From NCBI GenBank assembly GCA_948433435.1, contig CAOJDX010000002.1:25432-89431 (forward strand): 64,000 nt of DNA, in the 5' to 3' direction. The notes under the pieces were generated by a model, which made no database searches, had not been told where the DNA came from, and saw only the letters and a program-made list of their open reading frames with translations. This DNA comes from an uncultured Clostridia bacterium (GTDB lineage Bacteria > Bacillota_I > Bacilli_A > RF39 > UBA660). Shown piece after piece: positions 29,340-59,754 of the stretch; the first letter of the stretch is position 1, and each line of letters begins with the position of its first letter. Both the position numbers and the translations under genes were made by a program.

Positions 29340-29693
29340 CTAATTATTTTTAATTTTTTCTTGATAATACTTAAATAATTCTTTAAATCTATTATAGTGA
29401 ACAATTTCTCTTTGCCTAAGCCATAATAATGGACCTATTACATCAGCATCTTCTGCTAAATCAATTAAGTTTTCATAAACTGCTCTAGCTTTTTGTTCTG
29501 CTGCCATATTCTCAGAAATGTCAGCTAGTGGATCGCCAGTAGTAGCAAAATATGTTGTTGTAAAAGGTACTCCATTGGCATCTGTTGGGAATAAAGCTCT
29601 ACTATGTTCCGCATAATGAGGATCAAGTCCAGCTTCCTTTATTTCTTCTATTGTAGCATCCTTCATTAATTGATAAACCATAGTTGAAATCAT
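29340..29693 (-). pseudogene. cotJC: cotJC 3' fragment (Mn-catalase-family spore coat protein, C-terminal part), split by prophage insertion
   Basis: The translation (QYCKN)ELAHVEMISTMVYQLMKDATIEEIKEAGL... continues exactly where the 60904..61110 fragment stops (...LLTDIGTEEL). There is no RBS or start of its own. Confidence 0.8.
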
Positions 29694-29729
29694 TTCTACA
29701 TGAGCTAATTCATTTTTACAATACTGTTA

Positions 29730-31898
29730 TCAGTCAAAGGGCAATAAAATAATATCAATAGTGAAATTTTCTTTTAAATAGCGGCCTCCATGGTCTTTTT
29801 TATATATAATTTTCTTAATTATTGTAGATAATAATTCGTTTTTTTCTTCGGCTGTCATTTCTGGAGTATAACTACTTAAAACATCTTCTAATATAGGTAT
29901 AGCCTTTTTCTTGCTAGTAAATTCATGAGCTATATTATTTATGTTAGGCAACTCTTGTTTTTGATTTAATAATGCTTCTAACTGATTATTTAAAACATCT
30001 ATTCTTTTTTTAAAAAGTTCTTTAGTATATGCTCCAGCTTCTACTAATTCACAGGCTTTCTCAATTTGTGCGTTTACTTTGTCAATTTCATTGTCTATTA
30101 CCTGTATAACTTCTTTGTTATTATTTATTTCTTTTTGTACTGCTTCTTTGTAATTATCAATATATAATTTATAATCTTCTTTTATTGATCTTAATGTTTG
30201 TAATATTTTACTTTCCACTAATTCTAAATCGCTTGAAACACACTTACATCTAGGGCGACTACACATAAGAGTATCGGCGTGCGCTGGCGTTATACTTTCT
30301 TCTAATGTAGTTACTGCTTTATCAAACTCTGTAGTTTCTATATTCAATAATTTCTTTAGATCTTCCCATTTATTAGCGTATGGCATGGTAAATTTATCGT
30401 CATTACTAGCAAACCAATGATCTACGCAGCATTTAGATACCTTTAAGGATCTAGCTATATCGTTTAGACTATAGTCTCCTTTATGTTCTCGAAGTAATAA
30501 TCTTAACTTAGTCTTATTAACTTCGTAAACTCGTTTTACTGTAGGTTTTGTGTCTTTTCTTATATAGTATGGTCGTCTCGTCATATTATTACCGCAATAC
30601 CCACAAACAACTAAACCAACAAGAGGGTTTTTTAATTCTTTCTCGTCTGGAACAGTTTTAACTCGATTACTTAAAAATTTTTCTTGTATTCTACTACGAT
30701 ATTCTTCATTTAAAATACTATTTTTGTAATGTTTACCTTTTACGAATAAATAATCATTATTATTAGGGTTTTTTCTTACAATTTTACCATTTACTAAAGT
30801 TGTAACAGTTTTTCGTCTGTCCCAAGTTAAATAGCCGTATATAGTTGGACTTTGTAATATATTTCGTATCATATTGGCCGTCCACTCTTTAGCTTTTCTA
30901 GGAGTGATTTTAAGGTAGTTAAAATAGTGTGCTATGTTTGTTGGTCTCATATCGTCAATAATTATTTTAATTGTTTCTCCAGGGTTAAAAATATCGTTAG
31001 GTATATGTATATGATCTATTTTTATATGATAAGCAGCTGATATACTCTCTAATGTATCATTTTCTTGTAATGTATAATCAACACTTTTACTATCTACCGT
31101 AAGTTTTATATCATAACCAATTTTTAAATCTAAATTATGAGTAATTATTACTTTTTTATGAGTACCAAAAGTTTTAGCTATTGTAGATACCGTATCATTT
31201 TCTTTTACTATGTAAGTAGTATTAAGACCGTCCAAAAATAAATCAGCCATAAGTCTAACTACTTTAGCCTCCGACTCATTTTCAACTAACATAAAACCTT
31301 TTTCGTTAGGTATTTTTATTTTATTAGATCCATAAGGAAGCACAGAGCCCACATAATTACCTTCTTTAACGCTTCTTACACGCCCACGAGATAATATTCT
31401 TTTGGTATATTTTAAGTATTTTCTTGACTGATATAAGCCGTCTTCAAAATAGGAAAGATCATCTTCATTGTCAAGATCATAAATTTTCATAGGAGTTACT
31501 ATTTTTGTACCAGTATACTTAAATGTTTGAGCTATGATACCCTGGTCTATAGTGTTACCACGTGCTAGACGTTCTATTTCAATACATATAACGCCTTTTT
31601 TATCGTCGTTTTCTATTATAGATAATACTTCTTGCATTACTGGACGATTTTCGATAGTGTCTCCAGACGCAACCTCTCTATAGATATTATGCTCTGGTAT
31701 AGGTTTACCGAAAATACTTATAATAAAGTCCTGTAAGTCTTTTTCATGACGTTGTAATGTTTTTTCTATAGACTCGTCTTTAAAATAGTCCATATCTTTA
31801 CGTGATTTTCTTAAGTATATTATTAACATATCTAGTATTTCATCTATAGATAGATTACTAGGTATATGTAAAATTCTTAAAAATGTATCTAAATTCAT
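29730..31898 (-). CDS. Large serine recombinase (SpoIVCA/SprA-like integrase)
   Basis: It has an N-terminal resolvase catalytic domain (YLRKSRKD...IERLARG) and long recombinase and zinc-ribbon/coiled-coil domains. Its stop codon lies inside the attL arm. Confidence 0.9.
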   Translation of the reverse strand: MNLDTFLRILHIPSNLSIDEILDMLIIYLRKSRKDMDYFKDESIEKTLQRHEKDLQDFIISIFGKPIPEHNIYREVASGDTIENRPVMQEVLSIIENDDKKGVICIEIERLARGNTIDQGIIAQTFKYTGTKIVTPMKIYDLDNEDDLSYFEDGLYQSRKYLKYTKRILSRGRVRSVKEGNYVGSVLPYGSNKIKIPNEKGFMLVENESEAKVVRLMADLFLDGLNTTYIVKENDTVSTIAKTFGTHKKVIITHNLDLKIGYDIKLTVDSKSVDYTLQENDTLESISAAYHIKIDHIHIPNDIFNPGETIKIIIDDMRPTNIAHYFNYLKITPRKAKEWTANMIRNILQSPTIYGYLTWDRRKTVTTLVNGKIVRKNPNNNDYLFVKGKHYKNSILNEEYRSRIQEKFLSNRVKTVPDEKELKNPLVGLVVCGYCGNNMTRRPYYIRKDTKPTVKRVYEVNKTKLRLLLREHKGDYSLNDIARSLKVSKCCVDHWFASNDDKFTMPYANKWEDLKKLLNIETTEFDKAVTTLEESITPAHADTLMCSRPRCKCVSSDLELVESKILQTLRSIKEDYKLYIDNYKEAVQKEINNNKEVIQVIDNEIDKVNAQIEKACELVEAGAYTKELFKKRIDVLNNQLEALLNQKQELPNINNIAHEFTSKKKAIPILEDVLSSYTPEMTAEEKNELLSTIIKKIIYKKDHGGRYLKENFTIDIILLPFD

Positions 31899-32063
31899 AT
31901 TATAGCACTTTCTTTCTTTTAAATTTTATGCTATAATCGTATAGAAAAACCTATACAATTATAGTTTCTTATATAACCTATTAGTTTCTATTTTTGTTCT
32001 GAGTGTGATAGCTTTTGTGGTTTTTCATTTTGACACTTTATGTTCGCGCATAACGTGTCTTTT

Positions 32064-32543
32064 TTATTTACTTATAAAACATATAAGTTTATTATGATCT
32101 AAGCAATTTAATGTAATTACTTCGTTACTATTTCTTTTTATTTCTCCAACAATAATATTATTATCTATTAAATTGTTATTATTTATTATAAAAGATGTTC
32201 CATTTTCTAAAGTATTGTTTAATTTAATATCAAATGTCTTTAAATAACCGTTTTGACATATTATCGCAATAGTATAAAATTCATTATCAAAATCATATAT
32301 CAAACCGTAATCATAACTTTCGCATAAATTATAATATTTATTATCAATTTTATTACTTATTCTTATGTATTTATTATTTTCATTATCATAAGCCATAAAG
32401 TAGAAATTGTTATTTTTTTCGTCTATTTCAATAGAGACAAATTTACCTTTAAAGCAATTAAAATCATTGTTGTTTTTGCTAACTTTAATTAGTTGCATAT
32501 CAACTTTTTTTATTGTATTTTTTTTCTTAAATAATCCAAACAT
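32064..32543 (-). CDS. Hypothetical prophage accessory (moron) protein
   Basis: It is an Asn-rich ORF in the cargo position between the integrase and the repressor. Confidence 0.4.
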   Translation of the reverse strand: MFGLFKKKNTIKKVDMQLIKVSKNNNDFNCFKGKFVSIEIDEKNNNFYFMAYDNENNKYIRISNKIDNKYYNLCESYDYGLIYDFDNEFYTIAIICQNGYLKTFDIKLNNTLENGTSFIINNNNLIDNNIIVGEIKRNSNEVITLNCLDHNKLICFISK

Positions 32544-32620
32544 ACATTAACCTCTTTCTCTTTGTTAATTGGTAAATATTACCATTTACCTTATAATATC
32601 GCCCTAAGGAGGGGGTATTT

Positions 32621-32719
32621 ATGAAATATAAGTCAAAGTTCGATCTATTATATGAGCTACTTCTTAAAAAACATATAAACGTAGATCTTCTTATTGAACT
32701 TCTAAAGTATTTCAAATAG
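32621..32719 (+). CDS. Small ORF (32 aa) with strong SD
   Basis: It has AAGGAGGGGG 6 nt upstream and TTATAATAT as a -10 element. It encodes MKYKSKFDLLYELLLKKHINVDLLIELLKYFK. Confidence 0.25.
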   Translation: MKYKSKFDLLYELLLKKHINVDLLIELLKYFK

Positions 32720-32730
32720 GAATACTTTTT

Positions 32731-33096
32731 TTATTCCTTTTTATCAATAATAAATTCTTTATTTTTTTCTATAAACTTTAATAATTTATTAAAACTTTCT
32801 TCTGAGAGATCTTCGCCGTCGAAAAAATCATTTTCCATTAAAGCGTCTTTGAGTTTTTCTTTGATATTTTCCGCAGCTTTTCTTTCTTGCCACCCTAATA
32901 GATAGTTTGCGTCAACATCAAGTGCACCACATAAGGAGCATAATGTATCAGCGTCTGGCTTACTTGTTCCTTTTTCCCAGTTTGAAATAGCTGTATTTCC
33001 GAATTTCATTTCGTCATCACTTATTAACTCGGCTAATTGCTCTTGCGTTATTCCTTTTTTTATTCTAGCATTTCTAATATTTTCCCCTAATGACAT
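32731..33096 (-). CDS. XRE-family HTH repressor (cI-like)
   Basis: It has an N-terminal HTH (IRNARIKKGITQEQLAELI) and is divergent from a cro-like gene. Confidence 0.8.
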   Translation of the reverse strand: MSLGENIRNARIKKGITQEQLAELISDDEMKFGNTAISNWEKGTSKPDADTLCSLCGALDVDANYLLGWQERKAAENIKEKLKDALMENDFFDGEDLSEESFNKLLKFIEKNKEFIIDKKE

Positions 33097-33158
33097 TTAA
33101 AACCACCTCTCTTTAATTAGAATTATAACATTTAAAAAATGTCAAGTAAATACAAAAA

Positions 33159-33245
33159 TTCAAGAAACTTGAAATTTTATCATAAAAACATATTGACTTT
33201 ATTCAAGAACTATGGAATAATGAAAATAACTTCAAGATACTTGGA
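33159..33245. promoter_or_regulatory. Lysogeny switch region: three TTCAAG-N3-CTTG(A/G)A operator-like palindromes and the cro promoter
   Basis: O1 is ttcaagaaacttgaa at 33159-33173. O2 is ttcaagaactatgg at 33203-33216 and overlaps the promoter spacer. O3 is ttcaagatacttgga at 33231-33245. The promoter is TTGACT (33194-33199), a 16-nt spacer and AATAAT. Confidence 0.5.
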
Positions 33246-33267
33246 GTCAAAAATAAGGAGGTGTACT

Positions 33268-33498
33268 ATGAAAGTCTATGAAAGATTAAATAAATACATT
33301 AAAGAAAATGGTATTAAACAGTCTTATATTTCTGAAAAGTCCAAGATACCTGAAAATACTTTAAGTATGATTTTAAACGGAAAATTAAGATTAGACGCAG
33401 ATAAACTGCAAGACATTATAACAGCATTAAATATTGATCCTAATATTATTATTTATGCGCCTAATAATTCAACATCTGAAATATCAAACACTAACTAA
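33268..33498 (+). CDS. XRE-family HTH protein (Cro-like)
   Basis: It has an HTH (KENGIKQSYISEKSKIPENTLSMILNGK) and GGAGGTG upstream of ATG 33268. Confidence 0.7.
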   Translation: MKVYERLNKYIKENGIKQSYISEKSKIPENTLSMILNGKLRLDADKLQDIITALNIDPNIIIYAPNNSTSEISNTN

Positions 33499-33522
33499 CA
33501 TAAAATTTAATGAGGTGTTGAA

Positions 33523-33765
33523 ATGGAAAATACAGAAAGCTATCACACAATTAAGGAGCTAACACTAGGAAAAACGCAAGTTAGGGTTTGTATAGAGTCT
33601 ATTCCAACAGAAGATCAAATAAAAAGACGTTTAACTAAAATTTATGATGTCGTTAATGATATAGCTCGTAAAGCAGAAAGACGAGGCGTTGATACTTCTA
33701 AATGGTTTTATACTCCTAAACAAATTCGTCAGTTAAAGGAAAGCTCAGAAAATAGATTTATCTAA
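33523..33765 (+). CDS. Hypothetical phage early protein
   Basis: It is an 80-aa ORF following the cro-like gene. Confidence 0.4.
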   Translation: MENTESYHTIKELTLGKTQVRVCIESIPTEDQIKRRLTKIYDVVNDIARKAERRGVDTSKWFYTPKQIRQLKESSENRFI

Positions 33766-34155
33766 CTTTCCCTAGTAGGACAAGCTCTAAAAAAGAAAAG
33801 GAGAAACTATCATAAGAAAAAAACGTAAACTTAAAACTTGGGTAAGAGTTACCCTAACAATATTATTAACCATTATTATTGGTTTAATACTAGGTCTAAT
33901 AATCAAGAAAGGAGTCGACGACTTTGAGGAATTAGCGAGACAATGCGATCAAGACCGTGGCTATACTTGCTCTTATTATGATATAAGACAATATTCCTTA
34001 GGTAAGTAAAAAATATGTATGGAAGATCTAATAAAAAAAGATTTATAAGTTGGATCAGAACTCATAAATCAAAATGTAAACTTTCTTATAATTTACTCTC
34101 TAATTGTACCATATTTAGGGGGTAAAGTCAAAATATGGACGATTGGAGGTAAAAC

Positions 34156-34830
34156 ATGAAAGATAGTTATATAATGCACTGCGACTATAGTAGTCATTTT
34201 GAATTATTAACAGACGAAGAATTAGGTCGGCTAATACGCGACGTAAACAACTATGTTAAAAATGGTGTTTTACCCCAATACTCCGAGAGAGATCGCGTTT
34301 TAAATATGGCCTTTAGCTTCATGAAAACTAATATTGATATTGAAACCGAAAAATACATCAAGAAATGTGAAAAAAACAAAGAAAATGGGCGACGTGGTGG
34401 AAGACCGAGAAACCCAGAAAAAGCGAACGGTTTTGACGAAAACCCAGAAGAAGCCAAAAAAGCCGATACTGATACTGATACTACAACTGATACTGATACT
34501 ACAACTGATACTGATACTACAACTGATACTGATACTGAAACAACTAATAAAGGTGTGTGTAAAAAAAGCGCGCACGCGAAAGAAATCACTTGTCATTTAG
34601 GAAGTGAATACAAAGAAGAGTCTTGTTTCTACTGTATGAAAAAGAATTTATGTAAGAATAAAGACTCGCCTAGTTTTAAATTTTCCCACCCTCACGAAAC
34701 ATTTAGCGAGTGGAATAAAAAACTAGAACAAAGAAAAGAAGAAGTCATAAAAGAATTAGAGTCTATGGGTAAAAACCCAGATATAGAGCTTATTGATTAT
34801 GACTGGTTAAATGAAGACTTAGACACGTAA
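34156..34830 (+). CDS. Phage replisome-organizer-like protein with (TDTDTT)n repeat and C-terminal Cys cluster
   Basis: It has an N-terminal Lin1244/DnaD-like region, an acidic tandem repeat and a CxxxxxxxxCxxC cluster. Confidence 0.35.
   Translation: MKDSYIMHCDYSSHFELLTDEELGRLIRDVNNYVKNGVLPQYSERDRVLNMAFSFMKTNIDIETEKYIKKCEKNKENGRRGGRPRNPEKANGFDENPEEAKKADTDTDTTTDTDTTTDTDTTTDTDTETTNKGVCKKSAHAKEITCHLGSEYKEESCFYCMKKNLCKNKDSPSFKFSHPHETFSEWNKKLEQRKEEVIKELESMGKNPDIELIDYDWLNEDLDT
34455..34545 (+). repeat. 18-bp tandem repeat (gatactgatactacaact) x ~4 built on 6-bp GATACT subunits
   Basis: The repeat is directly visible in the sequence. It encodes TDTDTT units. Confidence 0.8.
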
Positions 34831-34846
34831 AGGAGGAAATTATATT

Positions 34847-35101
34847 ATGAGAATAACAAGTGTTAAAGTTAAAAAAATAGAAGAAAAAAATTCACGCTTA
34901 GTAGGAGTAGCTACTGCGGTAATTGATAAAGTATTTATCATTGAAGATATTAAGATTATTAAAGGCGACGAGAAATTGTTTCTAGCTATGCCTAGTCAAA
35001 AAATGCCTGACGGATCATACAAAGATATAGCACACCCACTTAACGCAGACTGTAGAAAGTTATTTGAAGACGCTATCTTAACAGAATATGATAATTGCTA
35101 A
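34847..35101 (+). CDS. SpoVG-family protein (phage-encoded)
   Basis: MRITSVKVKKIEE...KVFIIEDIKIIKGDEKLFLAMPSQKMPDGSYKDIAHPLNADCRKLFEDAIL aligns along its length with SpoVG (MEVTDVRL...[36 protein letters not shown]). Confidence 0.7.
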   Translation: MRITSVKVKKIEEKNSRLVGVATAVIDKVFIIEDIKIIKGDEKLFLAMPSQKMPDGSYKDIAHPLNADCRKLFEDAILTEYDNC

Positions 35102-35636
35102 TGAAATATGGAAATCTATCGAGTACGATCCTCGTTACCAGGTATCGAACTACGGAAGATTTAGAAAGAAAAACCCTAAAAATGGTTATAGATATTTAAA
35201 GCCATTTCGTAAAGGTAATCTATTCCAGGTAAAAATAAAAGATAAAGATATGAATTGTGCTAGATTAGTAGCTAATGCCTTTATAAAACAATTAGCTAAA
35301 GAAGATCGTGTTTATCACAAAAACAAAAATGAAAGTGATAACTATTATCGTAATTTAGAAATTGTAACATTAAAAGAACTAGGAAAACGTACAGGTCATA
35401 TATCTAAGTCGCAGCGTGTAGTTGAAGTAAAAGACGACGAAATAATAAGAGACTGGCCTTCTGCTCGCAAAGCTGCTAAAGACTTGTATATTTCATATCA
35501 AACAGTTATGGACTATTGTAATAATAAAGTAAAAAAGCCTATGTTTAATCTTATGTGGGAAGACGATTACTTCGATATGGTTTTCGAGCCATTTGTTTGG
35601 GAGAACAAACGGAGGAAATATGAAGTTAAAAATTAA
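35088..35636 (+). CDS. NUMOD4/HNH-like homing endonuclease family protein
   Basis: It has an N-terminal IWKSIEYDPRYQVSNYGRFR (NUMOD4-like) motif. Confidence 0.5.
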   Translation: MIIANEIWKSIEYDPRYQVSNYGRFRKKNPKNGYRYLKPFRKGNLFQVKIKDKDMNCARLVANAFIKQLAKEDRVYHKNKNESDNYYRNLEIVTLKELGKRTGHISKSQRVVEVKDDEIIRDWPSARKAAKDLYISYQTVMDYCNNKVKKPMFNLMWEDDYFDMVFEPFVWENKRRKYEVKN

Positions 35637-35982
35637 AAAATACATCAGACAGTTTATAGATTATACATTAACAGAAGAATTTAAGTCAATAGTTATCATA
35701 TTTTTAGTAGCTGTTACTATCTTAGCTGTATGTTGGGGCGCAATAATGACAGCTCTTACACAGGACCTTACTAATGTAGCTATAGAGAGAGGCGAAAAAA
35801 TCACAGAGTTAGAGCAACGCGTCGACTATTTTAGTGGCGAGGCTGCTAGATACAAAATGATTAGTGAAGAATATTACGAGTTATTTACTACTTGTCAAGA
35901 TACTGAAAGTTGGTACGAAAAATTTTACTACGACAATGTAGATCCATATACAGGAGAAATTGAGGGCGAATATTATGAGTAG
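35593..35982 (+). CDS. Hypothetical membrane protein
   Basis: The ORF has one transmembrane segment. Confidence 0.35.
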   Translation: MFGRTNGGNMKLKIKKYIRQFIDYTLTEEFKSIVIIFLVAVTILAVCWGAIMTALTQDLTNVAIERGEKITELEQRVDYFSGEAARYKMISEEYYELFTTCQDTESWYEKFYYDNVDPYTGEIEGEYYE

Positions 35983-36319
35983 TAATATTATATGTCTGTT
36001 ACTCGGTATAATATTCGGATCAATAATCACTTACATAGCTTATCATGATGTATTAAAAAGTAAAGACGATTTAATAGACGATTATAGAAAAGGTATTAAG
36101 ATCCACAATAACCGTGAACTTAAACTAATATTTATAAATCAGTCTACTAAAGATTATGTAAAAAAACAACAAAATATTATTAAAAGTAACTATGGTAAAA
36201 ATGAAAAGCCTACTACTGACGATACTATCGCAGCTGGTTACTATAGTGCTCTTAAAGATGTCGAAAAAACTATCACTCAATTTGAAAAGAACTCGGAGGA
36301 ACTTGTAACAAAGGAGTGA
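35960..36319 (+). CDS. Hypothetical membrane protein
   Basis: The ORF has an N-terminal transmembrane segment. Confidence 0.35.
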   Translation: MRANIMSSNIICLLLGIIFGSIITYIAYHDVLKSKDDLIDDYRKGIKIHNNRELKLIFINQSTKDYVKKQQNIIKSNYGKNEKPTTDDTIAAGYYSALKDVEKTITQFEKNSEELVTKE

Positions 36320-36323
36320 TCTT

Positions 36324-36965
36324 ATGTCTAAATCTAAGCCTAGATATTTTAGAGTAAAATTCGGACGTAAAACAGTTAGGCCGTTTAAAAAGCCAGATAT
36401 TGATAATATGATCGTAAATTGTAAAAAACGTATGGCCGAAGCTGAAACGAAAGAAGATCAAGAACAATATTACTTATGGTATCGAAACTATATGATTTTA
36501 CATCTAGGTAGAAACTTAGCCTTTCGTATAGAGGATCTATTACAATTAAAAACAGACAATTTTAAAAATGGTGGTATATATACGAGAGAGTTTAAGACTG
36601 GAAAAGAGCAGACATTCGAATTACACCCTTCTCTAGCTAAAGACGTTGAAGAATACGTAAATAAATTCGAGTTAGTCGAAGGAGAGTATTTATTCAAGAG
36701 TCGTAAAGGTGTTAATAAACCTATTACACGTCAAAGAGCATGGCAGATTATAAAACAATTAGCTAATGAAGTTAAAGTCAATTATGTTGTAGGCTGCCAC
36801 TCTTTACGTAAATACTTTGCTCGTACTTATTACGAACAGACAGGAGATCTTATCGGCCTATCAGAGATGTTAAACCACTCTAGCCCTAGAGTAACGCTTA
36901 TATACATCTGCTGGGAGACTGACGATAAGGAAGAAAAAAGAAAAGGCTTCTATTTAGGAGGTTAA
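36324..36965 (+). CDS. Tyrosine recombinase, catalytic-domain-only (phage integrase family)
   Basis: It has the catalytic residues R (GRNLAFRIEDL), K (FKTGKEQ), HxLR (GCHSLRKYFA) and Y (NHSSPRVTLIYI). It has no N-terminal core-binding domain. Confidence 0.7.
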   Translation: MSKSKPRYFRVKFGRKTVRPFKKPDIDNMIVNCKKRMAEAETKEDQEQYYLWYRNYMILHLGRNLAFRIEDLLQLKTDNFKNGGIYTREFKTGKEQTFELHPSLAKDVEEYVNKFELVEGEYLFKSRKGVNKPITRQRAWQIIKQLANEVKVNYVVGCHSLRKYFARTYYEQTGDLIGLSEMLNHSSPRVTLIYICWETDDKEEKRKGFYLGG

Positions 36966-36967
36966 TC

Positions 36968-37534
36968 ATGAATAAACAAGAGCAGCTTAGCATTATAGAT
37001 AATTCTACAACTTATGAAGTAGACAAGACACAAAATAAGGATCATGTAGCTACTCCTCGTTGGGTAGTAGAAAATATATACGATTTAATTGATATTAAAA
37101 GCTTTAAAATGATATGGTTTCCTTTTAATAACTACGATAGTCATTTTAAATTAAAAGCTGACGAATTAAACCTACAGTATAAAGCTACACATATCTTTGA
37201 TAACTTAGGTAATGATTTCTTTACTACATTACCACCTAAAGACTGTGATCTGTTAATTAGTAACCCACCTTTCTCACAACAAAACGAAATTATAAAAAGA
37301 AGTTTTGAGTTAGTGGAGCTAGGTTTAATTAAGTCTTTCTGTTTATTACTTCCTTTATCTACTTTAGAGACTCCTAAAAGAGCCGAGATATACGAAAAGT
37401 ATATTGATAAATTAAACATACTTATCTTTAAGAAGAGAATTAAGTTTTTAGGTAAAGCTACAAGCTTTAATACTGCTTGCTGCTGGGTATGTTATAACAT
37501 TGACTCACTTAAACAAAAAATAATATGGATCTAA
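36968..37534 (+). CDS. N6-adenine DNA methyltransferase (small, NPPF motif)
   Basis: It carries the DLLISNPPF motif IV. Confidence 0.55.
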   Translation: MNKQEQLSIIDNSTTYEVDKTQNKDHVATPRWVVENIYDLIDIKSFKMIWFPFNNYDSHFKLKADELNLQYKATHIFDNLGNDFFTTLPPKDCDLLISNPPFSQQNEIIKRSFELVELGLIKSFCLLLPLSTLETPKRAEIYEKYIDKLNILIFKKRIKFLGKATSFNTACCWVCYNIDSLKQKIIWI

Positions 37535-37866
37535 GGAGGTTAACTATGTTTGAAAATATTAAAAATTATAACGATTTAAAAACATTATTTAATACTAATG
37601 ATAAAACATTTAATACTTACAGTTATTTAAAATGTTGTTCTAGGTATGGCGAAGGTGGACGTTTAATCATTACTCCAAGTAAAGAAGCTAGCAAAGATAT
37701 ATTTATTAGATTTCAACAAGAAAATAAAGTCGGATCATTTATCAGAAATGGAAATACTTTTAAGATTTCTATAGGAGCTGAGGAAATACTTATTTATGAT
37801 ATTGAGTATTTACAGACACATCATTTAGACGGTATTAGATTTAAAAGTATAAATTTTATGGAGTGA
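37525..37866 (+). CDS. Hypothetical phage protein
   Basis: ORF in a co-directional early/middle gene array. Confidence 0.35.
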   Translation: MDLRRLTMFENIKNYNDLKTLFNTNDKTFNTYSYLKCCSRYGEGGRLIITPSKEASKDIFIRFQQENKVGSFIRNGNTFKISIGAEEILIYDIEYLQTHHLDGIRFKSINFME

Positions 37867-37870
37867 TATT

Positions 37871-38266
37871 ATGGAAGAAAAAATAAAAGCGAAACCATTT
37901 AATTTAGATAACTTAAATAGATACTTACAAGAAATAGACGGAGATGTCTTAAATGTCGGCTATGATTTATCAGAAAATAAAGATCACGCAGCTTTAACAA
38001 TAGCTCGTCATGAAAAAGGTGTAATAAGAGTTCTATCTACTATCTATGATAGAGAGGCTAAACTAATGTATAACCTATTAAAAGGTGCTAGCCCTTCTAT
38101 AGAAGATGTCGTTTATATGTTAGAAAAATATTACTCTTTACAAGATATAGCTATTATTAGCGGTAAATTAAGAAAGACCGTTTTATCTAAAGCTGGTAGT
38201 CAATTAACAGTAGCATATTTAGAAAACGGATCATTATTAAGGAGTGCTAGCAACTATGAAAACTAA
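37871..38266 (+). CDS. Hypothetical phage protein
   Basis: ORF in a co-directional array. Confidence 0.35.
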   Translation: MEEKIKAKPFNLDNLNRYLQEIDGDVLNVGYDLSENKDHAALTIARHEKGVIRVLSTIYDREAKLMYNLLKGASPSIEDVVYMLEKYYSLQDIAIISGKLRKTVLSKAGSQLTVAYLENGSLLRSASNYEN

Positions 38267-38675
38267 AATTAAACATCATTGTAAGTTTAATAATAAATTA
38301 TTATTGCTTACCCCACTAGAGCACCATATAGCACATGATATAGAAGCAACAGCACTTACTCCACACTTTCATAGCGTTAATATTGCTATATTACGAACAA
38401 TAAAAACCTGTAAAAAAGACTTTTGCTTTATTGAAGCATGGCGTATTAAAAGATTATTAAAATATTATAAGAAAGCTATTGAAGAAGAACAACTAAAAAT
38501 ATTTTTATATAATAAAAAATTACAAGTACAATGTGGCCGTGCTAATGGTAAAACTTTCTATACTACTAATATGTGGTTAAATGTAGAATATCGCCTACTA
38601 AAGAAACAACATAAATATATTAAAGCGTTAAAAATTAAAAGGTTAATAAAAAAATACAATAAAGGAAAATTATAG
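38244..38675 (+). CDS. Hypothetical phage protein (basic)
   Basis: ORF in a co-directional array. Confidence 0.35.
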   Translation: MLATMKTKIKHHCKFNNKLLLLTPLEHHIAHDIEATALTPHFHSVNIAILRTIKTCKKDFCFIEAWRIKRLLKYYKKAIEEEQLKIFLYNKKLQVQCGRANGKTFYTTNMWLNVEYRLLKKQHKYIKALKIKRLIKKYNKGKL

Positions 38676-38686
38676 GAGGTATCATT

Positions 38687-38926
38687 ATGGAAGAAGAAAT
38701 AAAAAAAGAAATTAAAGATTTACGAACAAAGATAGATAACTTTGAAAGAAAATATCTATTTGCCGGTAATTATAAACTTGTAGTAGCTATATTAGATAAA
38801 TTAGGAATTGATAATTTAGAAATTTCATACGAAGATCTTAATCAAAAATATAATGATGTTAAATATATTGTTGAGTATAGTGAGGACTTTAAAACAGTAA
38901 CAGTTAGAAGGTATGAAAATGATTAA
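38687..38926 (+). CDS. Hypothetical phage protein
   Basis: ORF with GGAGG upstream. Confidence 0.35.
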   Translation: MEEEIKKEIKDLRTKIDNFERKYLFAGNYKLVVAILDKLGIDNLEISYEDLNQKYNDVKYIVEYSEDFKTVTVRRYEND

Positions 38927-39176
38927 ATTAACTGATATTCAAAAGGAGAATATTGTAGATCATATAATGAATAGTCAAATAAGATGTAAAAGATGTTCTA
39001 AATATGACGGAGATAGAAGCGATAAAGCTGATAAAGAAGATGTTAAGTACCATTGTACTGTAGATACATACGACGGTAGATGTTGGTATTACTGTTTTTC
39101 AGAAATATATAACTATATTGAAAGTAATAACTTATGGGAAGTTATGATAAAAAAACATAGAATTAAGAATTTTTAA
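38913..39176 (+). CDS. Hypothetical Cys-rich phage protein
   Basis: ORF with a CKRCSKYDGD...HC pattern. Confidence 0.3.
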   Translation: MKMIKLTDIQKENIVDHIMNSQIRCKRCSKYDGDRSDKADKEDVKYHCTVDTYDGRCWYYCFSEIYNYIESNNLWEVMIKKHRIKNF

Positions 39177-39357
39177 AAAATCACTAGCAATTTTACATAA
39201 TGAAAAGTTGTAAATTCGATAAAAACTAACACCTTCCTATTATAGGGAAAATGCTTATAAATTCTCGAAAAATTACCCTAGTAGATAGTGGCTCGTGAAT
39301 TTAACAGAATTATGTCATTATGTAAAATTCGTAATAGTAAGAAATGAGGTGTCGATT

Positions 39358-39642
39358 ATGACAGATAGCGACTTCGATATTGTCGATTATAGAGAGTATG
39401 GTACATTTAATGGTAAACCTACTTTACCTAGTTATAACCGAGAAGAACGAAGAAAATATATAAGAGATCATAAAAATAAAAATGGTTGTAAACTTTGTCC
39501 TAATTGTAAAAATAAAACAATGTTTATAACTGACGATAATAATAAAGAATTTTGTGAGTTGTGTGGTAAATTATACCCAACTATAATGTTTAAAAATGAA
39601 AATGGAGATTACGTTCCTTTAGGAGTTGGAAAAATATGTTGA
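39358..39642 (+). CDS. Hypothetical zinc-ribbon phage protein
   Basis: It has CKLCPNC...CELCG pairs. The start was chosen at ATG after GAGGTG. Confidence 0.35.
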   Translation: MTDSDFDIVDYREYGTFNGKPTLPSYNREERRKYIRDHKNKNGCKLCPNCKNKTMFITDDNNKEFCELCGKLYPTIMFKNENGDYVPLGVGKIC

Positions 39643-39917
39643 CTTTACCAATTAAGAAAAAATGGTTTGATATGATCCTTAGCGGAGAGAAAAAAGAAGA
39701 GTATCGAGAAATAAAACCTTACTACGATAGTCGTTTTAAATATATCGGCCCAGAATATATGTATAAAATCATTTTTCGAAATGGTTACAGCAAGAATAGT
39801 CCAGCTATTAAATGCAGCTGTATTATTTACAAAAAGTGTGGTAACCCAGACTGGGGAGCTATTCCAGATAAAGAATATTATGTTTTAAAAATATTAAGTA
39901 TGGAGGTAATTAAATGA
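39636..39917 (+). CDS. ASCH/PUA-like domain protein
   Basis: LPIKKKWFDMILSGEKKEEYREIKPYY resembles ASCH. Confidence 0.35.
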   Translation: MLTLPIKKKWFDMILSGEKKEEYREIKPYYDSRFKYIGPEYMYKIIFRNGYSKNSPAIKCSCIIYKKCGNPDWGAIPDKEYYVLKILSMEVIK

Positions 39918-40291
39918 AAAAAATAAATTATATAAGTATTGAAATCAGATCAGACGGAAAAAATGACATATTTACTACTGATTATGACTTGATGTTTGAA
40001 ACAGACGAACAAGTTTGTATAAAGCATGGCGAAAAATTAGAAATACTAACTTTAAAAAAAAGATACATTAAAAATTCACTCTCAATTAGAAGACATACAC
40101 ATTTATTTTAGAGACTGGGACTTTTTAAAGTATAAAGCTATTCATTGTAGCACTTATACTACAAAAGATCTTACAGAAGTATTGGAAGAAATGAAAAAGA
40201 AAATAACTAAGTTTATTCATAAAGAGTATGACTGGTTATTTGGGAAAGATATAGAAGACAGAATAAACTCTATAACTTTGGAGACTAGACA

Positions 40292-40492
40292 ATGAATTTG
40301 GTAGAAACAAAAAGATATTATAATGCTTTATCAGAAATAAGAGTGAAATGTCCGTGTAGTCATACATTGTTTTTCCCTTCTTATGGTCCAGATATACAGA
40401 TTTGTTCTCATTGCGGACATAAAGTCTATAGAAATGACAAAGTAAAATTTATGGATCTATTAAATAAACAGTTAAAAGTTAGGAGGTGCTAA
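40292..40492 (+). CDS. Hypothetical zinc-ribbon protein
   Basis: It has CPCSH...CSHCGH. Confidence 0.3.
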   Translation: MNLVETKRYYNALSEIRVKCPCSHTLFFPSYGPDIQICSHCGHKVYRNDKVKFMDLLNKQLKVRRC

Positions 40493-40695
40493 AAATGGAA
40501 GAACAAAAGAAAGAATTACATTGTTCCGAGTGTGGTGTTAAAATTGAAGGCGAATATTACAAGTGTTTAGATAATTGCCTACAAGTAAATTTTTTTGATA
40601 CAGAGGAAGAAAATTGTTTTTGCTCTACGGAGTGTTTTGATAAATATATGTCTTTGGAGCAGCTAAATATTGAAGACGACGAAGACGAAATTTAA
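40486..40695 (+). CDS. Hypothetical zinc-ribbon protein
   Basis: It has CSECG...C...C. Confidence 0.3.
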   Translation: MLKMEEQKKELHCSECGVKIEGEYYKCLDNCLQVNFFDTEEENCFCSTECFDKYMSLEQLNIEDDEDEI

Positions 40696-40873
40696 AGATA
40701 AATGCGACGAGTGCGGAAAATTTGATTTTCTTAGAGGCGTTAATAATAAGTGCCTTTGTGAAAATTGCATAAAGCAATATAACTTACCTGTTGAAGAAAA
40801 ACAATTAAGCATTTTTGATATGGAGGTATTAGAAAATGGACAACAACGCAGAAATAGTGAAATTAGTAAATGA
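40670..40873 (+). CDS. Hypothetical zinc-ribbon protein
   Basis: It has CDECG...CLCENC. Confidence 0.3.
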   Translation: MKTTKTKFKDKCDECGKFDFLRGVNNKCLCENCIKQYNLPVEEKQLSIFDMEVLENGQQRRNSEISK

Positions 40874-41177
40874 ACTTTATGACAATATTCGTGAAGCTAT
40901 TACACCAATAGTAGAAGCTATAAAAAAACTTGCTGACTCTTTATCTACTGCTTTCTTAGAAGCGTGGAAAGAGGTAAAATATGATATAAACTATTTTGAT
41001 ATAAATATATCGCGTAAAAGATTTACTAAGCTTCTCATTTCTATTGGTTATCAGAGAAACGACGCTAATAAAATAGCATGGAAATATCACGAAGAAAAAG
41101 GAAAGTATACTTTACTCGACTTTTTAATAGAAAATCGAAAAAAGGAGGATCTAAAAAATGATATGGTTAGGAATTAG
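40836..41177 (+). CDS. Hypothetical phage protein
   Basis: ORF. Confidence 0.3.
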   Translation: MDNNAEIVKLVNELYDNIREAITPIVEAIKKLADSLSTAFLEAWKEVKYDINYFDINISRKRFTKLLISIGYQRNDANKIAWKYHEEKGKYTLLDFLIENRKKEDLKNDMVRN

Positions 41178-41285
41178 TATTATAATTTCTTCTCTATTGC
41201 TAGACGCTGGTATGTATGTAGCTGTAGAAAGATATTTTGAGTTAAAACATAGTAAAAAATAATTGTAGAAAAGGAGGACTTAAAA

Positions 41286-41834
41286 ATGGCTGATACTATG
41301 GAAGCAGCCAACACAGAAAAATCACAAGTCGATTTTAAGGAAATAACAAGTTACATTTTCGAGGAATTATCTAAACGAAATTTATTACGCAAAGGAACAT
41401 CTACGTATCAAAACACAGAGTCGCTTTTATACAAGTACAATGATTTAAAAAAATCTATCGAAGATCGCGAAGACGAAATCGAAGAAATTAAGACTTCTGG
41501 ACTACGCGCAAAATCTAAAAGTATTTTAAAAATGCCAGAAGGAAGTCATAGCGATCATGATACGATCGAAGAAGAAATAATCGAAGGTCTTATCGGAGAC
41601 ATCAAAAAAACGCAGCTTGTAATTAACCGTATAGACCGCATAATTAAAAAATTTAACTCTGATAAATACATAGATATTATCAAGTTAAAATATTTCGAAA
41701 ATAAAACGCAACAAGAAATAGCCGAAACACTTGATAAAGATACATCTACAATATGGCGAAATAACAAGAGACTTATTAACGAAATTAAGGTTTATTTATT
41801 CCCTAACGACGTTGTGAAAGAATTAACCTCTTGA
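41286..41834 (+). CDS. ArpU/RinA-like phage late transcriptional regulator (sigma-70 region-4-like)
   Basis: It has a C-terminal KLKYFENKTQQEIAETLDKDTSTIWRNNKRL helix-turn-helix. It sits directly upstream of the packaging module. Confidence 0.55.
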   Translation: MADTMEAANTEKSQVDFKEITSYIFEELSKRNLLRKGTSTYQNTESLLYKYNDLKKSIEDREDEIEEIKTSGLRAKSKSILKMPEGSHSDHDTIEEEIIEGLIGDIKKTQLVINRIDRIIKKFNSDKYIDIIKLKYFENKTQQEIAETLDKDTSTIWRNNKRLINEIKVYLFPNDVVKELTS

Positions 41835-41867
41835 CAAAATGCAATAACCCACGCAATACCCACGCCA

Positions 41868-41957
41868 TTGACATAGCAATTTTTATACTTTATAATGTGT
41901 ATAATATGAAATAATTGGAAATGCGAAAACACGTCTTTTTACAGGCGTGTTTTTTTC
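41868..41957 (+). promoter_or_regulatory. Late-operon promoter (TTGACA-N17-TATAAT) immediately followed by a hairpin plus T-run
   Basis: TTGACA lies at 41868-41873 and TATAAT at 41891-41896. The hairpin aaacacg-tctttttacagg-cgtgttttttt lies at 41927-41957. Upstream there are repeated CAATAACCCACGC/CAATACCCACGC motifs. Confidence 0.5.
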
Positions 41958-41976
41958 GCGTGTTGCGAGGTGGTAT

Positions 41977-42307
41977 TATGGCTAGAGATTTCGCTAAAGC
42001 TTTCTATCAGTCTACCGCGTGGCGCAAGACAAGAGCCTATATCTTTAACAAAGAGCATGGTATCTGTCAGCGTTGTCATGGTGCTAATGGACCAGGCGAA
42101 ATAGTACACCATAAAATCTACCTTACTCCTTCCAATATTCATAACCCAGCTATCACACTGGGAGAGGACAACCTAGAGCTATTGTGTAGAGTATGCCATG
42201 CTTTAGAGCATGAGTCAGAACTGCCAACAGATAAGAGCCTTATGTTCGACGAGGAAGGTAACCTAGTAGAGAGGAGTGTTGACAATGACTATCACAGTCT
42301 ATACTAA
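41977..42307 (+). CDS. HNH endonuclease (packaging-associated)
   Basis: It has CQRCHG...HHKIYL...N...CRVCHALEH. It lies adjacent to terS/terL. The start was chosen at ATG 41977, after GAGGTGG. Confidence 0.8.
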
Positions 42308-42563
42308 CTATTTGATTATGTCTTATGATGTAGTGTTCCATGGTACTACTACAGAGCTAGCTAAAGCTCTGGACGAAGGACCTGTACTACTAAGCATTAA
42401 AGGCGGTGGCGAAGTGTTAATAAATTCTGTCAACGCTGCTTTAATCGAAATAAAAGACTCCCCCCTAACTTAAAAAATATTTGCTTCACAGTGAACCGCA
42501 CTTGTGTCCTTTCTTGAACCGCTTCGGTCGTGTGAGGGGGGTGTAGTCAAAGGTGGTGGAAAA

Positions 42564-42950
42564 ATGGAAAATGAGGACGTTAATTCTAAAGAATTAAAAG
42601 AAGTACCAGACTATAACAAAGAGTTAAAAAAACTTAATAAAATCTTTAAAAATATCTCAAAAGATAAAAAAGATTTGGTACAAAAGTTAATAAAAAGTGC
42701 TGCTTTTATGACAGTAGAATTGACTAAGCTAGAGAACTACATCAGTATACATGGTGTTTCTGAAACATACCAAAACGGAGAAAATCAGTACGGAACGAAA
42801 ACAAGTACAGAAGCCAGTGTATATAACACCATGATTAAAAATTATACGTCGATCATAAAGCAATTATGCGAACTATTGCCAGAAGGTTTACCAAACACAA
42901 AGGAAGGTAACGCCTTAATGAACTTTGCTACTAAACCTAAAGGGCGATAG
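42564..42950 (+). CDS. Terminase small subunit (P27-like)
   Basis: It lies upstream of terL. Its size and helical character fit a P27-like small subunit. The start was chosen at ATG 42564, after AAGGTGGTGG. Confidence 0.65.
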   Translation: MENEDVNSKELKEVPDYNKELKKLNKIFKNISKDKKDLVQKLIKSAAFMTVELTKLENYISIHGVSETYQNGENQYGTKTSTEASVYNTMIKNYTSIIKQLCELLPEGLPNTKEGNALMNFATKPKGR

Positions 42951-42953
42951 CTA

Positions 42954-44600
42954 ATGAATTATATTCGAGAGTATAATTCAAAAATACAGTCTGGCGAAAT
43001 TAAAACAAGTCGCAGAGTTAAAGCTGTTTATGCTCGATTAGTTAAAGAAATGGACGACGAAAACTCGTCTTTTTATTTTGACGAAGACGCAGCTATGAGA
43101 CCTATAGAGTTTACCGAGACTTTTTGTAAACAGTCTCAGGGAGAACTTGGAGCAGATCTAAAGTTAGAACTATTCCAAAAAGCTTATATACAAGCTTTAT
43201 TCGGTTTCTTAGAAAAAGAGTCAGGGTATCGAAGATTTAACGAGACCATGTTCTTAGTCGGTCGTAAAAATGGTAAGACTACACTTTTATCTTCCATAGC
43301 GCTTTATATGTTAATTGCTGACTATGAAGGCGCAGCAGAAATATACTCAGTAGCGACAAAGAAAGATCAAGCTAAGAAATGTTTAACAGAAGCTGTAAAC
43401 ATGGTTAAGCAGAGCCCAGAGTTAAGAGCTGTTTTAAAGAAACGAAGAAACGATCTATACTTTAGTGCCACTTCTTCTATCTTTGAGGCGTTAGCTTCTG
43501 ACTCTAACACGTTGGACGGTCTTAATAGCCACGCGGTTATTATAGACGAGCTACACGCAATTAAAGACCGTAATTTATACGAAGTTATGAAACAGTCTAT
43601 GTCAGCACGTCGTCAACCATTACTTGTAATGATTACTACTGCTGGTACGGTACGCGAGTGTATCTTTGACGATAAGTACGATTATGCTTGTAGAATCGCT
43701 GACGGCGAAATAACAGACGATCACTTTTTACCTATTCTTTACGAACTAGATAATCGTAACGAGTGGACTGATCCGTCATGTTGGGTAAAAGCTAACCCAG
43801 GTTTAGGTACAATTAAGAGTTATAACACTTTAGCTCGTTTCGTTGAAACCGCTAAAAATGACTCGAAAGAATTACCAGGAGTTTTATGTAAAGATTTCAA
43901 TATTCGTGAAAACGATAGCAACACTTGGCTTACTTTTACAGAAATAAATAATACTGAAACTTTTGACATTGAAGACTTAAAAGATACTTACGCTATCGGT
44001 GGTTGTGATTTATCAGCAACAACAGACCTTACGTGTTCTTCCCTACTTATCAGAAAACCTAACGACGAGAAAATATATGTTATACAACATTATTTCTTAC
44101 CACAGGCGAAAATTGATAAGTTAGACGAGAAAAATACACAAGAAGCGCCATACAAGATATGGCGTGATCGAGGGTTACTCACAGTCTGCGAAGGAAACCG
44201 TGTCAATTATTCACAGGTTACGGAGTGGTTTGTAGAAATGCAGCAAAAGTATAGTATTGATCCTATTTATGTTGGTTATGATAGAGCCTTAGCTGGTTAT
44301 TGGGTAGACGAAATGACATCAAACGGCTTTCAAATGGAGTCTGTCGCACAAGGACCATTTACTTGGTCGCAGCCAATGCGTGAAATGGGAGCAGCTTTAG
44401 CGGATCATAAAGTAAATTACAATAATAACCCTATTCTTAAGTGGTGTTTATCTAATACAGCTGTTAAGAAAAGCGGTTTAAATAATATACAACCTATAAA
44501 AATAAATGAACGTCGTAGAATTGACGGAGCCGTTTCTTTATTAAATGCTTGGGTTTTATACGTTAAGCATTATGAAGACTTTATGTATAATGTGGGGTGA
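42954..44600 (+). CDS. Terminase large subunit
   Basis: It is 548 aa with an ATPase Walker A-like motif (VGRKNGKTT), Walker B (VIIDELHA) and a C-terminal nuclease fold. Confidence 0.9.
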   Translation: MNYIREYNSKIQSGEIKTSRRVKAVYARLVKEMDDENSSFYFDEDAAMRPIEFTETFCKQSQGELGADLKLELFQKAYIQALFGFLEKESGYRRFNETMFLVGRKNGKTTLLSSIALYMLIADYEGAAEIYSVATKKDQAKKCLTEAVNMVKQSPELRAVLKKRRNDLYFSATSSIFEALASDSNTLDGLNSHAVIIDELHAIKDRNLYEVMKQSMSARRQPLLVMITTAGTVRECIFDDKYDYACRIADGEITDDHFLPILYELDNRNEWTDPSCWVKANPGLGTIKSYNTLARFVETAKNDSKELPGVLCKDFNIRENDSNTWLTFTEINNTETFDIEDLKDTYAIGGCDLSATTDLTCSSLLIRKPNDEKIYVIQHYFLPQAKIDKLDEKNTQEAPYKIWRDRGLLTVCEGNRVNYSQVTEWFVEMQQKYSIDPIYVGYDRALAGYWVDEMTSNGFQMESVAQGPFTWSQPMREMGAALADHKVNYNNNPILKWCLSNTAVKKSGLNNIQPIKINERRRIDGAVSLLNAWVLYVKHYEDFMYNVG

Positions 44601-44604
44601 TCTA

Positions 44605-45897: not shown

Positions 45898-46034
45898 TAA
45901 TCAAAGTCAGGAGACTAAAGATATTAAAGTTGTAAAACTTAATAATTTTATTAGCTATGAACTTTTAAAGAAAATGAAAGAAAAAGAGCCTAATACTAAG
46001 TTTATCTTGCCTAATGGAAAGGAGGCTGTCCTAA

Positions 46035-46652
46035 ATGACAAAAAATAATTTAATAAATAAGACAGGTCGTGAATTTAGAGCGTTTTGTTCTTTTGAACTA
46101 AAGGAGCAACGAAGCGACGACGGCGAAAGTCAAGATTACGTACACGGCGTTCCAGTAGTATTTAATACTCCTACTTGTCTTTATGAATATGAAGGCGTTA
46201 AATTCTACGAACAGATAGACCGACACGCATTTGATAGCTGTGATATGTCAGATGTTATATTTAATTATAATCATGGTGGACGTGTTGCCGCTCGCCTTAG
46301 AAATAACACCTTAAAATTAACTATAAATGATGTCGGTATGGAAATGGACGCATTTTTAGGGGGTACACAATTTGGTAGAGACCTTTTAGAAGATATAAGA
46401 GGTGGCTATATAGATAAAATGAGTTTTGCTTTTGTAGTAGCAGCTGACGGCGACGAGTACGATCCGTTAACTCATACAAGAACAATAACTAAAATTAAGA
46501 AGCTATACGACGTATCAGCCGTTGATATACCAGCTTACGATACAACAAGTATCTCAGCTAGAGATCTCTTTTCGGAGGAGTACGAAAAAGAGATAAGAGC
46601 TTTGGAGGAAGCCAAACTACGTGAGATATGTATAGCAAAAAGTAAAATCTAA
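46035..46652 (+). CDS. HK97-family prohead protease
   Basis: It is in the conserved position and has a length and motifs typical of the Caudovirales prohead protease. Confidence 0.8.
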   Translation: MTKNNLINKTGREFRAFCSFELKEQRSDDGESQDYVHGVPVVFNTPTCLYEYEGVKFYEQIDRHAFDSCDMSDVIFNYNHGGRVAARLRNNTLKLTINDVGMEMDAFLGGTQFGRDLLEDIRGGYIDKMSFAFVVAADGDEYDPLTHTRTITKIKKLYDVSAVDIPAYDTTSISARDLFSEEYEKEIRALEEAKLREICIAKSKI

Positions 46653-46678
46653 AATTGTTCGAATAAGGAGGAATAAAC

Positions 46679-47830: not shown

Positions 47831-47861
47831 CTAATAAAAAATAATATAAAGGAGTGATATT

Positions 47862-48185: not shown

Positions 48186-48186
48186 T

Positions 48187-49370: not shown

Positions 49371-49384
49371 AGGAGGGAAAACTA

Positions 49385-49951: not shown

Positions 49952-50025
49952 AAATAAAATTTATTCTCCTTTTTGTTTTCTATTTGAGCGATAACAAAAG
50001 GGAGAATAATAGAAAGAAGGAAATT

Positions 50026-54747: not shown

Positions 54748-54764
54748 GGAGGGAAATAAGAGTT

Positions 54765-55682: not shown

Positions 55683-55683
55683 T

Positions 55684-57363: not shown

Positions 57364-57404
57364 TATGGGATCTGGTGTGTGTGCTTTGATGTTGACGCTT
57401 GCTG

Positions 57405-59742: not shown

Positions 59743-59754
59743 GGAGGTCTCGCT

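Follow-up and report, generated by a model that had tools for sequence, protein, structure and literature searches.

The molecular role of SpoVG is debated, and the protein has been viewed both as a DNA-binding transcription factor and as an RNA-binding regulator. Chromosomal SpoVG proteins are described for B. subtilis, S. aureus and S. epidermidis, L. monocytogenes and B. burgdorferi, with structures under PDB entries 2ia9, 2i9z and 2i9x. SpoVG acts as a general regulator that binds DNA/RNA, and it occurs in bacteria that do not sporulate as well (PMC3688583). In the S. aureus protein, K50A or R51A alone abolishes DNA binding; the R53A-R54A double mutant of Borrelia SpoVG likewise abolishes it, and sequence specificity is determined by six consecutive residues of the helix (PMC3688583). 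Host SpoVG can also matter to a phage, as S. aureus deleted for spoVG shows lower activity of the phi13 late promoter and a lower phage yield (PMC13123087).

Homologues of spoVG are also known from mobile elements. The family (PF04026) is enriched on mobile elements of gut Firmicutes (Jiang et al., 2019; PMC6907783), and a curated list of sporulation-gene homologues found to be enriched in spore-former phages includes spoVG (Schwartz et al., 2023, mBio; PMC10294663). Post-transcriptional control of sporulation by phage spoVG has already been speculated upon for gut phages (PMC10294663). We found no experimental test of a phage-encoded SpoVG in the literature. Other host regulators that have been copied into phages and altered include sigma factors that resemble sigF and sigG, and a truncated spo0A, and for the phage sigma factors an effect on sporulation has been demonstrated experimentally (PMC10294663, PMC12713726). 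Also relevant are the intervening prophages that reside inside mother-cell sporulation genes (skin in sigK, SPbeta in spsM and PhiS63 in C. perfringens sigK). These carry a large serine recombinase at one end, and the reading frame of the interrupted gene is restored by excision. The gene cotJC is among the listed targets of intervening elements (Abe et al., 2013).

The spoVG homologue considered here lies in a 64,000-nt stretch of DNA (the window) from a low-GC genome (~26%). It is encoded at 34847..35101 (+), with an ATG start at 34847 and a stop codon that ends at 35101, and its product is 84 aa in length. A ribosome-binding site (AAGGAGG, 34830..34836, +) is located 10 nt 5' of the ATG. 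The initial annotation took the product to be a SpoVG homologue over its length, quoted a peptide from it and named a profile match to PF04026 as the check. The peptide is present in the product of this reading frame, and the profile search bears out the assignment with a significant match (E=1.8e-28; 99 bits, compared with a gathering score of 29.6) in which residues 1-82 align to profile positions 1-81 of 82. SpoVG chains in the PDB (2i9x, 2i9z and 2ia9) also match, with E values of 1e-20 to 2e-18.

The predicted structure agrees with this assignment. In the AlphaFold2 model (pLDDT 83.7), a C-terminal helix comes after six short strands, which is the arrangement of beta strands and C-terminal alpha helix seen in 2i9z and 2ia9. 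In a Foldseek search with the model, 10 of the 10 top matches are SpoVG crystal structures and no other fold scores. Superposition on S. epidermidis and B. subtilis SpoVG gives TM values of 0.79-0.85 and rmsd values of 1.7-3.0 A (best match: TM 0.85, rmsd 1.8 A). The invariant MPS...D..HP...R motif is shared by the phage and chromosomal proteins. However, the phage protein scores 99.7 bits against the NCBIfam equivalog for the septation regulator SpoVG (NF009749), below the cutoff of 108. Thus, as judged from these scores, it is a member of the SpoVG family but not a typical orthologue of chromosomal SpoVG. It also differs from the chromosomal proteins in having Q at the first residue of a basic doublet and ADCRKL in the helix, and in lacking the C-terminal tail.

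Unlike chromosomal spoVG, which we found in yabG-veg-spoVG-yabP or ispE-spoVG-prs-ctc-pth contexts (seen for homologues P0105, P0108 and P0281), this gene is situated among phage early genes. It was previously proposed that the gene is prophage-encoded and that the phage occupies a sporulation gene, and both proposals hold: spoVG is surrounded by phage genes from recombinase to endolysin, and the prophage splits cotJC. The element is a complete, siphovirus-type prophage of ~31.2 kb (about 29707..60918) with a GAATT/AATTC core at both ends. The core copies are at 29707-29711 and 60914-60918, as determined by comparison of the junctions with attP of two metagenome contigs (L007 and L008). At one end of the element, 19 nt from the att core, is the gene for a large serine recombinase of 722 aa (29730..31898, -; Pfam Resolvase, Recombinase and Zn_ribbon_recom), the integrase. 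It is followed by a CI-like HTH repressor (32731..33096, -; Pfam HTH_19/HTH_3) and by a Cro-like HTH protein (33139..33498, +; Pfam HTH_3), which is the first gene of the rightward early operon that holds spoVG. The early region encodes orf80, a DUF6291 protein, SpoVG, a NUMOD4-HNH endonuclease, two small membrane proteins and a short tyrosine-recombinase-like protein.

Later prophage genes encode a sigma/RinA-like protein, an HNH endonuclease, TerL, portal, S78 protease, capsid, tape measure, Dit and Tal proteins. The terminase large subunit (42954..44600, +; Pfam TerL_ATPase and TerL_nuclease) marks the start of the late module. The sigma-70/RinA-like gene (41286..41834, +), a candidate late-gene activator, matches the NCBIfam sigma70-ECF model (6.7e-8) and, below cutoff, phage_rinA (4e-4). 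It is located just upstream of the HNH-terminase block, and the protein is probably the late-gene activator of this prophage. A reverse-transcriptase cassette and then an endolysin complete the prophage before attR. The endolysin (59755..60810, +), the last phage gene before attR, has GH25 and LysM domains according to its homologues (annotation of L007 and L008; tblastn identity to L008 of 97%).

The cassette in the tail region (55684-58702) resembles a diversity-generating retroelement. The reverse transcriptase is encoded at 57638..58702, with an Rfam RT-18 RNA just upstream (57542..57618). A 119-nt repeat occurs in five copies (56686-57522), the first of which is the 3' end of a gene for a 373-aa protein (55684..56805). 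Between this first copy and the copy nearest the reverse transcriptase, 17 of the 30 mismatches are at adenines of the latter. The presence of four non-coding, template-like copies in such a cassette is unusual.

The two pieces of cotJC lie on either side of the prophage. The 3' fragment (29340..29693, -) encodes the C-terminal 117 aa as called, matches Pfam Mn_catalase positions 73-197, and continues the frame from ...AHVEMIS. The 5' fragment (60904..61110, -; 68 aa, from the list of open reading frames, the sequence itself and the reconstituted gene) ends with ...TDIGTEEL plus two codons derived from the phage. This N-terminal fragment adjoins cotJB with a CotJA-like N-terminus (61110..61508, -; Pfam CotJB E=1.3e-20), which is upstream of the split gene. 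The split point is between ...GTEEL and AHVEM... When the pieces are rejoined in silico at GAATT they form a continuous 187-aa protein of the manganese-catalase/CotJC type, which covers manganese-catalase profile positions 1-191 contiguously. Thus, like the intervening prophages, this one is inserted in a sporulation gene with a frame-restoring junction and has a large serine recombinase at its end. The likeness to skin and SPbeta concerns the surrounding prophage rather than the spoVG gene, and in the present case it is drawn from DNA sequence. Elements of that type are excised in the mother cell in the course of sporulation, with a directionality factor controlled by sigma-E/K; no such factor was identified here.

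The metagenome contigs L007 and L008 (29.6 and 31.4 kb) have the endolysin gene directly beside the recombinase gene across attP, so an excised form of the phage exists in gut samples. The element is a complete and apparently active phage. Relatives differ in the att core. Comparison of L007 (4840-4870) and L004 (4850-4880) with the window (29700-29720 and 60905-60925) revealed that the 5-bp core is inverted in a variant's attP, which reads ...CAATGAATTTTTAC where the other form has ...CAATTCATTTTTAC. The variant with the inverted core is integrated in cotJC in the opposite orientation, and the cotJC 5' fragment abuts the recombinase end. It appears to exemplify, in nature, how the core sets the polarity of serine integrases.

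Near-identical phages (L001-L019) lie next to cotJC 3' fragments whose identity to that of the window (29340-29693) is only 58-89%, and the genes downstream of these fragments are entirely different. This range of identity indicates, from sequence comparison, different hosts or paralogues. The att site is within a metal-binding motif (TDIGTEELAHVEM) that is conserved among manganese-catalase/CotJC proteins, and its location in a conserved motif may permit integration into several hosts or paralogues. A megablast search with 25 kb of the prophage returned no match among 50,697 GenBank phages. A tblastn search of the same phages with SpoVG returned only 14 weak matches (<=46% identity), to unannotated records.

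The exact SpoVG protein of the window was found on 102 contigs, and a variant with 96% identity on 161. The loci of this lineage that carry spoVG come from mouse, human and ruminant gut samples. Proteins with 63-100% identity to the window's SpoVG were, in every context read (loci L001-L019, L089-L096 and L101-L111), from the same phage lineage and encoded after a replication-organizer gene. All members of the phage family for which the early region is covered have spoVG. These phages are mosaic, and in some SpoVG is 100% identical while CI is only 31% and the DUF6291 protein only 67% identical. One relative, with a SpoVG that is 64% identical, has a tyrosine integrase next to smpB and a DnaB_2/DnaD-like protein in place of the DUF6291 protein, and has kept spoVG. 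Therefore, carriage of spoVG and occupancy of cotJC are independent, and carriage is a property of the phage lineage. A 94-aa homologue labeled by its source as 'stage V sporulation protein G' (P0083) was considered as a possible host chromosomal gene and rejected, as it is in a sister prophage, also in cotJC.

Purifying selection acts on spoVG (median dN/dS of 0.19 over 147 pairs). Between the window and L001 dN is 0 and dS is 0.18, and across the lineage the synonymous divergence of spoVG is saturated. Thus, the reading frame encodes a genuine SpoVG-fold protein that has been kept by selection, and spoVG is a fixed, probably early-lytic gene of one temperate siphovirus lineage of uncultured low-GC gut Bacilli.

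Directly upstream of spoVG is the gene for the DUF6291 protein (34156..34830, +; 224 aa; Pfam DUF6291 E=2.3e-23). This replication-organizer-like protein has weak matches to 'primosomal protein' PHROGs, a TD-repeat linker and a C-terminal ...IDYDWLNE tail. In the gene, the TD-repeat is built of an 18-nt unit (34468-34563) and varies in length among relatives. In the relative L095, a DnaB_2/DnaD-like protein with the same C-terminal motif is in the place of the DUF6291 protein. A [FIL]DY[DN]WL[NED] tail is common to DUF6291, DnaB_2 and Lin1244_N+DnaB_2 organizers, and is present in those of the window (34156-34830, tail at 34783-34827) and L095 (6216-6866) and in the upstream genes of L142, L147 and L152. 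The shared tail may be a docking motif that these proteins have in common.

Downstream, the start of a NUMOD4/HNH homing endonuclease gene (35088..35636, +; Pfam NUMOD4; PHROG HNH endonuclease) overlaps the spoVG stop by 14 nt. The endonuclease gene is absent in some close relatives, one of which (L092) has only a 23-codon remnant and another (L177) none, and by this pattern it behaves like a mobile homing endonuclease inserted right behind spoVG. Also encoded in the early region is a short tyrosine-recombinase-like protein of 213 aa (36324..36965, +; Pfam Phage_integrase E=5e-20), with weak XerA/XerD-like matches, that is not the integrase. It lacks the N-terminal SAM-like domain, and is conserved in the phage family though integration uses the serine recombinase. 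Homologues with 75-79% identity occur in phage backbones without SpoVG (L170-L173 and L182). The idea that SpoVG travels with this gene was rejected, as the five tyrosine-recombinase loci of other or unidentified backbones lack SpoVG; three of the five have a divergent TerL.

Expression timing was judged from gene order. The spoVG gene begins 16 nt behind the DUF6291 stop codon, and no terminator-like site was found within 32000-37500, including between cro and spoVG. Promoter-like matches in the 32-37.5 kb region are at chance level (30, compared with a shuffled expectation of 27.9). Chromosomal spoVG has a promoter for a stationary-phase or stress sigma factor, which is sigma-H in Bacillus and sigma-B in Staphylococcus. 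The whole window has 0 matches to a sigma-H-type consensus where 1.07 are expected, although this consensus may not be that of the host. For a promoter, terminator or sigma-H site belonging to spoVG itself there was no signal above chance. In the simplest reading, spoVG would be co-transcribed from the Cro-side early promoter, expressed once the prophage is induced or a cell is infected, and kept repressed during lysogeny. Because it is part of the Cro-side early operon and has neither a terminator of its own nor a convincing promoter, the gene is probably silent in the lysogen.

The closest homologues that we found in a chromosomal context (P0105 and P0281) are 53-57% identical to the phage protein. 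Their context is mfd-spoVT...ksgA-yabG-(veg)-spoVG-yabP-yabQ-divIC. Two annotated SpoVG proteins from 'Bacilli bacterium' MAGs (P0278 and P0313), assigned by annotation alone, are 59-60% identical, and SpoVG proteins of model organisms, the crystallised ones included, are 39-41% identical. Since the nearest chromosomal-type SpoVG proteins (57-60%) are from gut Bacilli and those of model organisms are at 39-41%, the phage gene was most likely captured, judging by these identities, from the chromosome of a host of the gut Bacilli lineage.

Chromosomal SpoVG proteins have a basic doublet (KR, RK or KK) after the invariant MPS motif, and P0105, P0281, P0278 and P0313 all keep it as RK. In the window's SpoVG the doublet is replaced by Q51-K52. 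Within the phage clade, the position of S. aureus K50 is occupied by Q, by S in two members and by E in the relative integrated at smpB, and never by K or R; the second of the two basic residues (K52 in the window) is retained. The comparison set was the nearest 150 of 3,833 family cluster representatives (50% identity, E <= 1e-3). Of the 164 domains in these nearest 150 representatives, 121 carry K or R as the first doublet residue and only six carry QK or EK; proteins with tandem SpoVG domains account for most of the remaining exceptions. The helix residues that correspond to SDMRQE in S. aureus are ADCRKL in the phage protein. Sequence comparison thus identifies the phage protein as a conserved variant with a predicted alteration of the binding surface. 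That it has lost DNA binding would be an extrapolation from the S. aureus and Borrelia mutants. Against such a loss, glutamine is still able to form hydrogen bonds to the backbone, and K52 is kept.

Other SpoVG-family proteins in the databases (P0115, P0137, P0185 and P0173, outside the window) have two to four tandem domains or are fusions. Fusions of the type found on conjugative elements include ArdC_N with an M78 peptidase and two SpoVG domains, and two SpoVG domains with DUF4316. Many of these tandem or fused proteins have Y instead of K or R at the first doublet position.

We tentatively favor a reading, to which we give a probability of about 0.4, in which the phage protein is a host-derived SpoVG paralogue that is made early in the lytic cycle and substitutes for, or antagonises, host SpoVG. 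It builds on what is described above (SpoVG family and fold, location in a prophage, conservation across the lineage, purifying selection, place in the operon and the residue change specific to the clade), and proposes the following for the time of expression, nucleic-acid binding, target and host effect. The gene would be transcribed with the early-lytic operon, from Cro and the DUF6291 organizer through SpoVG and onward. The product, a small oligomeric paralogue with an altered nucleic-acid-binding surface (Q51 and helix ADCRKL), would act in trans on host SpoVG-dependent control. By competing or co-assembling with host SpoVG it could replace or antagonise it, and the infected cell would be kept in a state that favors phage gene expression over septation and sporulation. 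We favor this reading because the gene is accessory and is conserved whichever phage modules flank it, and because a regulator copy with a changed contact residue resembles the competitor or poison subunit that would be expected. The phi13 precedent, in which host SpoVG matters to a phage, is also counted in its support. A chromosomal spoVG of the host was not found within the 64,000 nt of the window.

The early-operon position fits equally well with a second reading, which we rank close behind the first, in which the protein is a regulator or architectural factor directed at the phage itself. In this case SpoVG would bind phage DNA or RNA at the origin, in the organizer complex or at the early-to-late switch, with no designed effect on host development. 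Consistent with this, spoVG is always right behind an organizer gene (DUF6291 here, DnaB_2/DnaD-like in L095). The order recurs in distant viral contigs (L142, L147-149 and L152) with SpoVG proteins that are 35-39% identical, where a DUF6291 or Lin1244_N+DnaB_2 organizer is again upstream and shares the C-terminal [FIL]DY[DN]WL tail with the DUF6291 protein of the window and the DnaB_2 protein of L095. Among 40 other SpoVG loci in IMG/VR, the upstream neighbor encodes thymidylate synthase in seven, a DnaD-like/DUF6291 organizer in three and an HU protein in one. SpoVG domains are also fused to ArdC_N and other conjugative-element modules. The RinA/sigma-like late activator of the prophage could be under the control of such a factor. 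In phi13, a circuit of this kind responds to host SpoVG.

However, an obligate partnership with DUF6291 was rejected. In 80 DUF6291 viral loci that were taken from IMG/VR independently of SpoVG, and so without ascertainment bias, SpoVG is within 4 kb in 11, all of the same phage family, and the other 69 lack it. As phages of other backbones with the same tyrosine-recombinase-like gene also lack SpoVG, we conclude that spoVG is an accessory early gene of certain lineages and not a required component of this replication module. Also counting against a phage-directed factor is that, of the two residues with which characterised SpoVG proteins need to bind DNA, the clade has lost one. In addition, the early region offered no conspicuous repeats as candidate binding sites; a search for repeats and iterons found only the coding TD-repeat and short repeats at chance level, which were rejected as candidate sites.

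A role tied more closely to sporulation, the stronger form of what the initial annotation had suggested, is only partly supported. In this reading spoVG would serve for lysogenic conversion or as a sporulation sensor; it would be expressed in the lysogen or in sporulating cells and be linked to residence in cotJC through the timing of excision or through spore formation. The prophage does split cotJC and carry a large serine recombinase, in the manner of skin and SPbeta-type elements; cotJC is already a known target of intervening elements; and the published list of sporulation genes enriched in spore-former phages includes spoVG. Nevertheless, we consider this reading unlikely. The gene is inside an early lytic operon without a terminator or a promoter signal above chance, there are no sigma-H-type matches in the window (0, compared with 1.07 expected), and spoVG is on the strand opposite to cotJ transcription. 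The relative at the smpB site, with its tyrosine integrase, keeps spoVG. Moreover, SpoVG homologues occur on IMG/VR viral contigs with a GC content of 51-66%, which argues for a role not confined to sporulation. Given the early-lytic operon, the smpB-site relative, the general nature of the regulator and the high-GC viral SpoVG proteins, the context evidence does not favor a special link to sporulation. By comparison with the phage sigma factors, for which there are experiments, a sporulation role for phage spoVG would be a reading from sequence.

Also improbable is that the phage protein is a dedicated anti-SpoVG. Having lost the lysine that contacts DNA but kept the oligomerisation surface, it would poison host oligomers upon induction and stop or divert asymmetric septation and sporulation, which would keep the lytic cycle from becoming trapped in a spore. 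If true, an anti-SpoVG together with residence in cotJC would amount to a two-pronged phage control of host spore formation.

A functionless passenger, i.e., a recently captured and decaying fragment of a host gene, might be suggested by the length of 84 aa (compared with 85-107 aa for many chromosomal SpoVG proteins) and the score under the NCBIfam equivalog cutoff, but it is effectively excluded by the dN/dS values and the lineage-wide conservation, given strong purifying selection with saturated synonymous divergence over the lineage and a gene in every family member that covers the early region, and it also conflicts with the full-length domain match, good ribosome-binding site and confidently predicted fold.

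Phage-borne spoVG was known before, and like the examples in the published catalogues (PMC10294663, PMC6907783) this is a gut phage of a spore-forming Firmicute with a spoVG homologue. It is an expected kind of accessory gene that refines those catalogues and overturns nothing. To catalogue-level knowledge we add, modestly, the phage lineage, the fixed position behind an organizer gene, the signal of purifying selection, the likely origin in the host lineage and the conserved change of K to Q, S or E. As with the phage sigma factors and truncated spo0A, a host regulator appears to have been copied into a phage and altered, here at a binding residue. This abundant lineage offers a natural SpoVG variant that is strongly selected yet lacks one of the two residues thought to be essential for DNA binding. 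Such a variant could reveal which activities of SpoVG are important, and whether it serves phages to direct the development of the host or their own late genes.

We also identified a T-box leader (Rfam RF00230, 127.9 bits) at 18674-18865 (-), within the host portion of the window.
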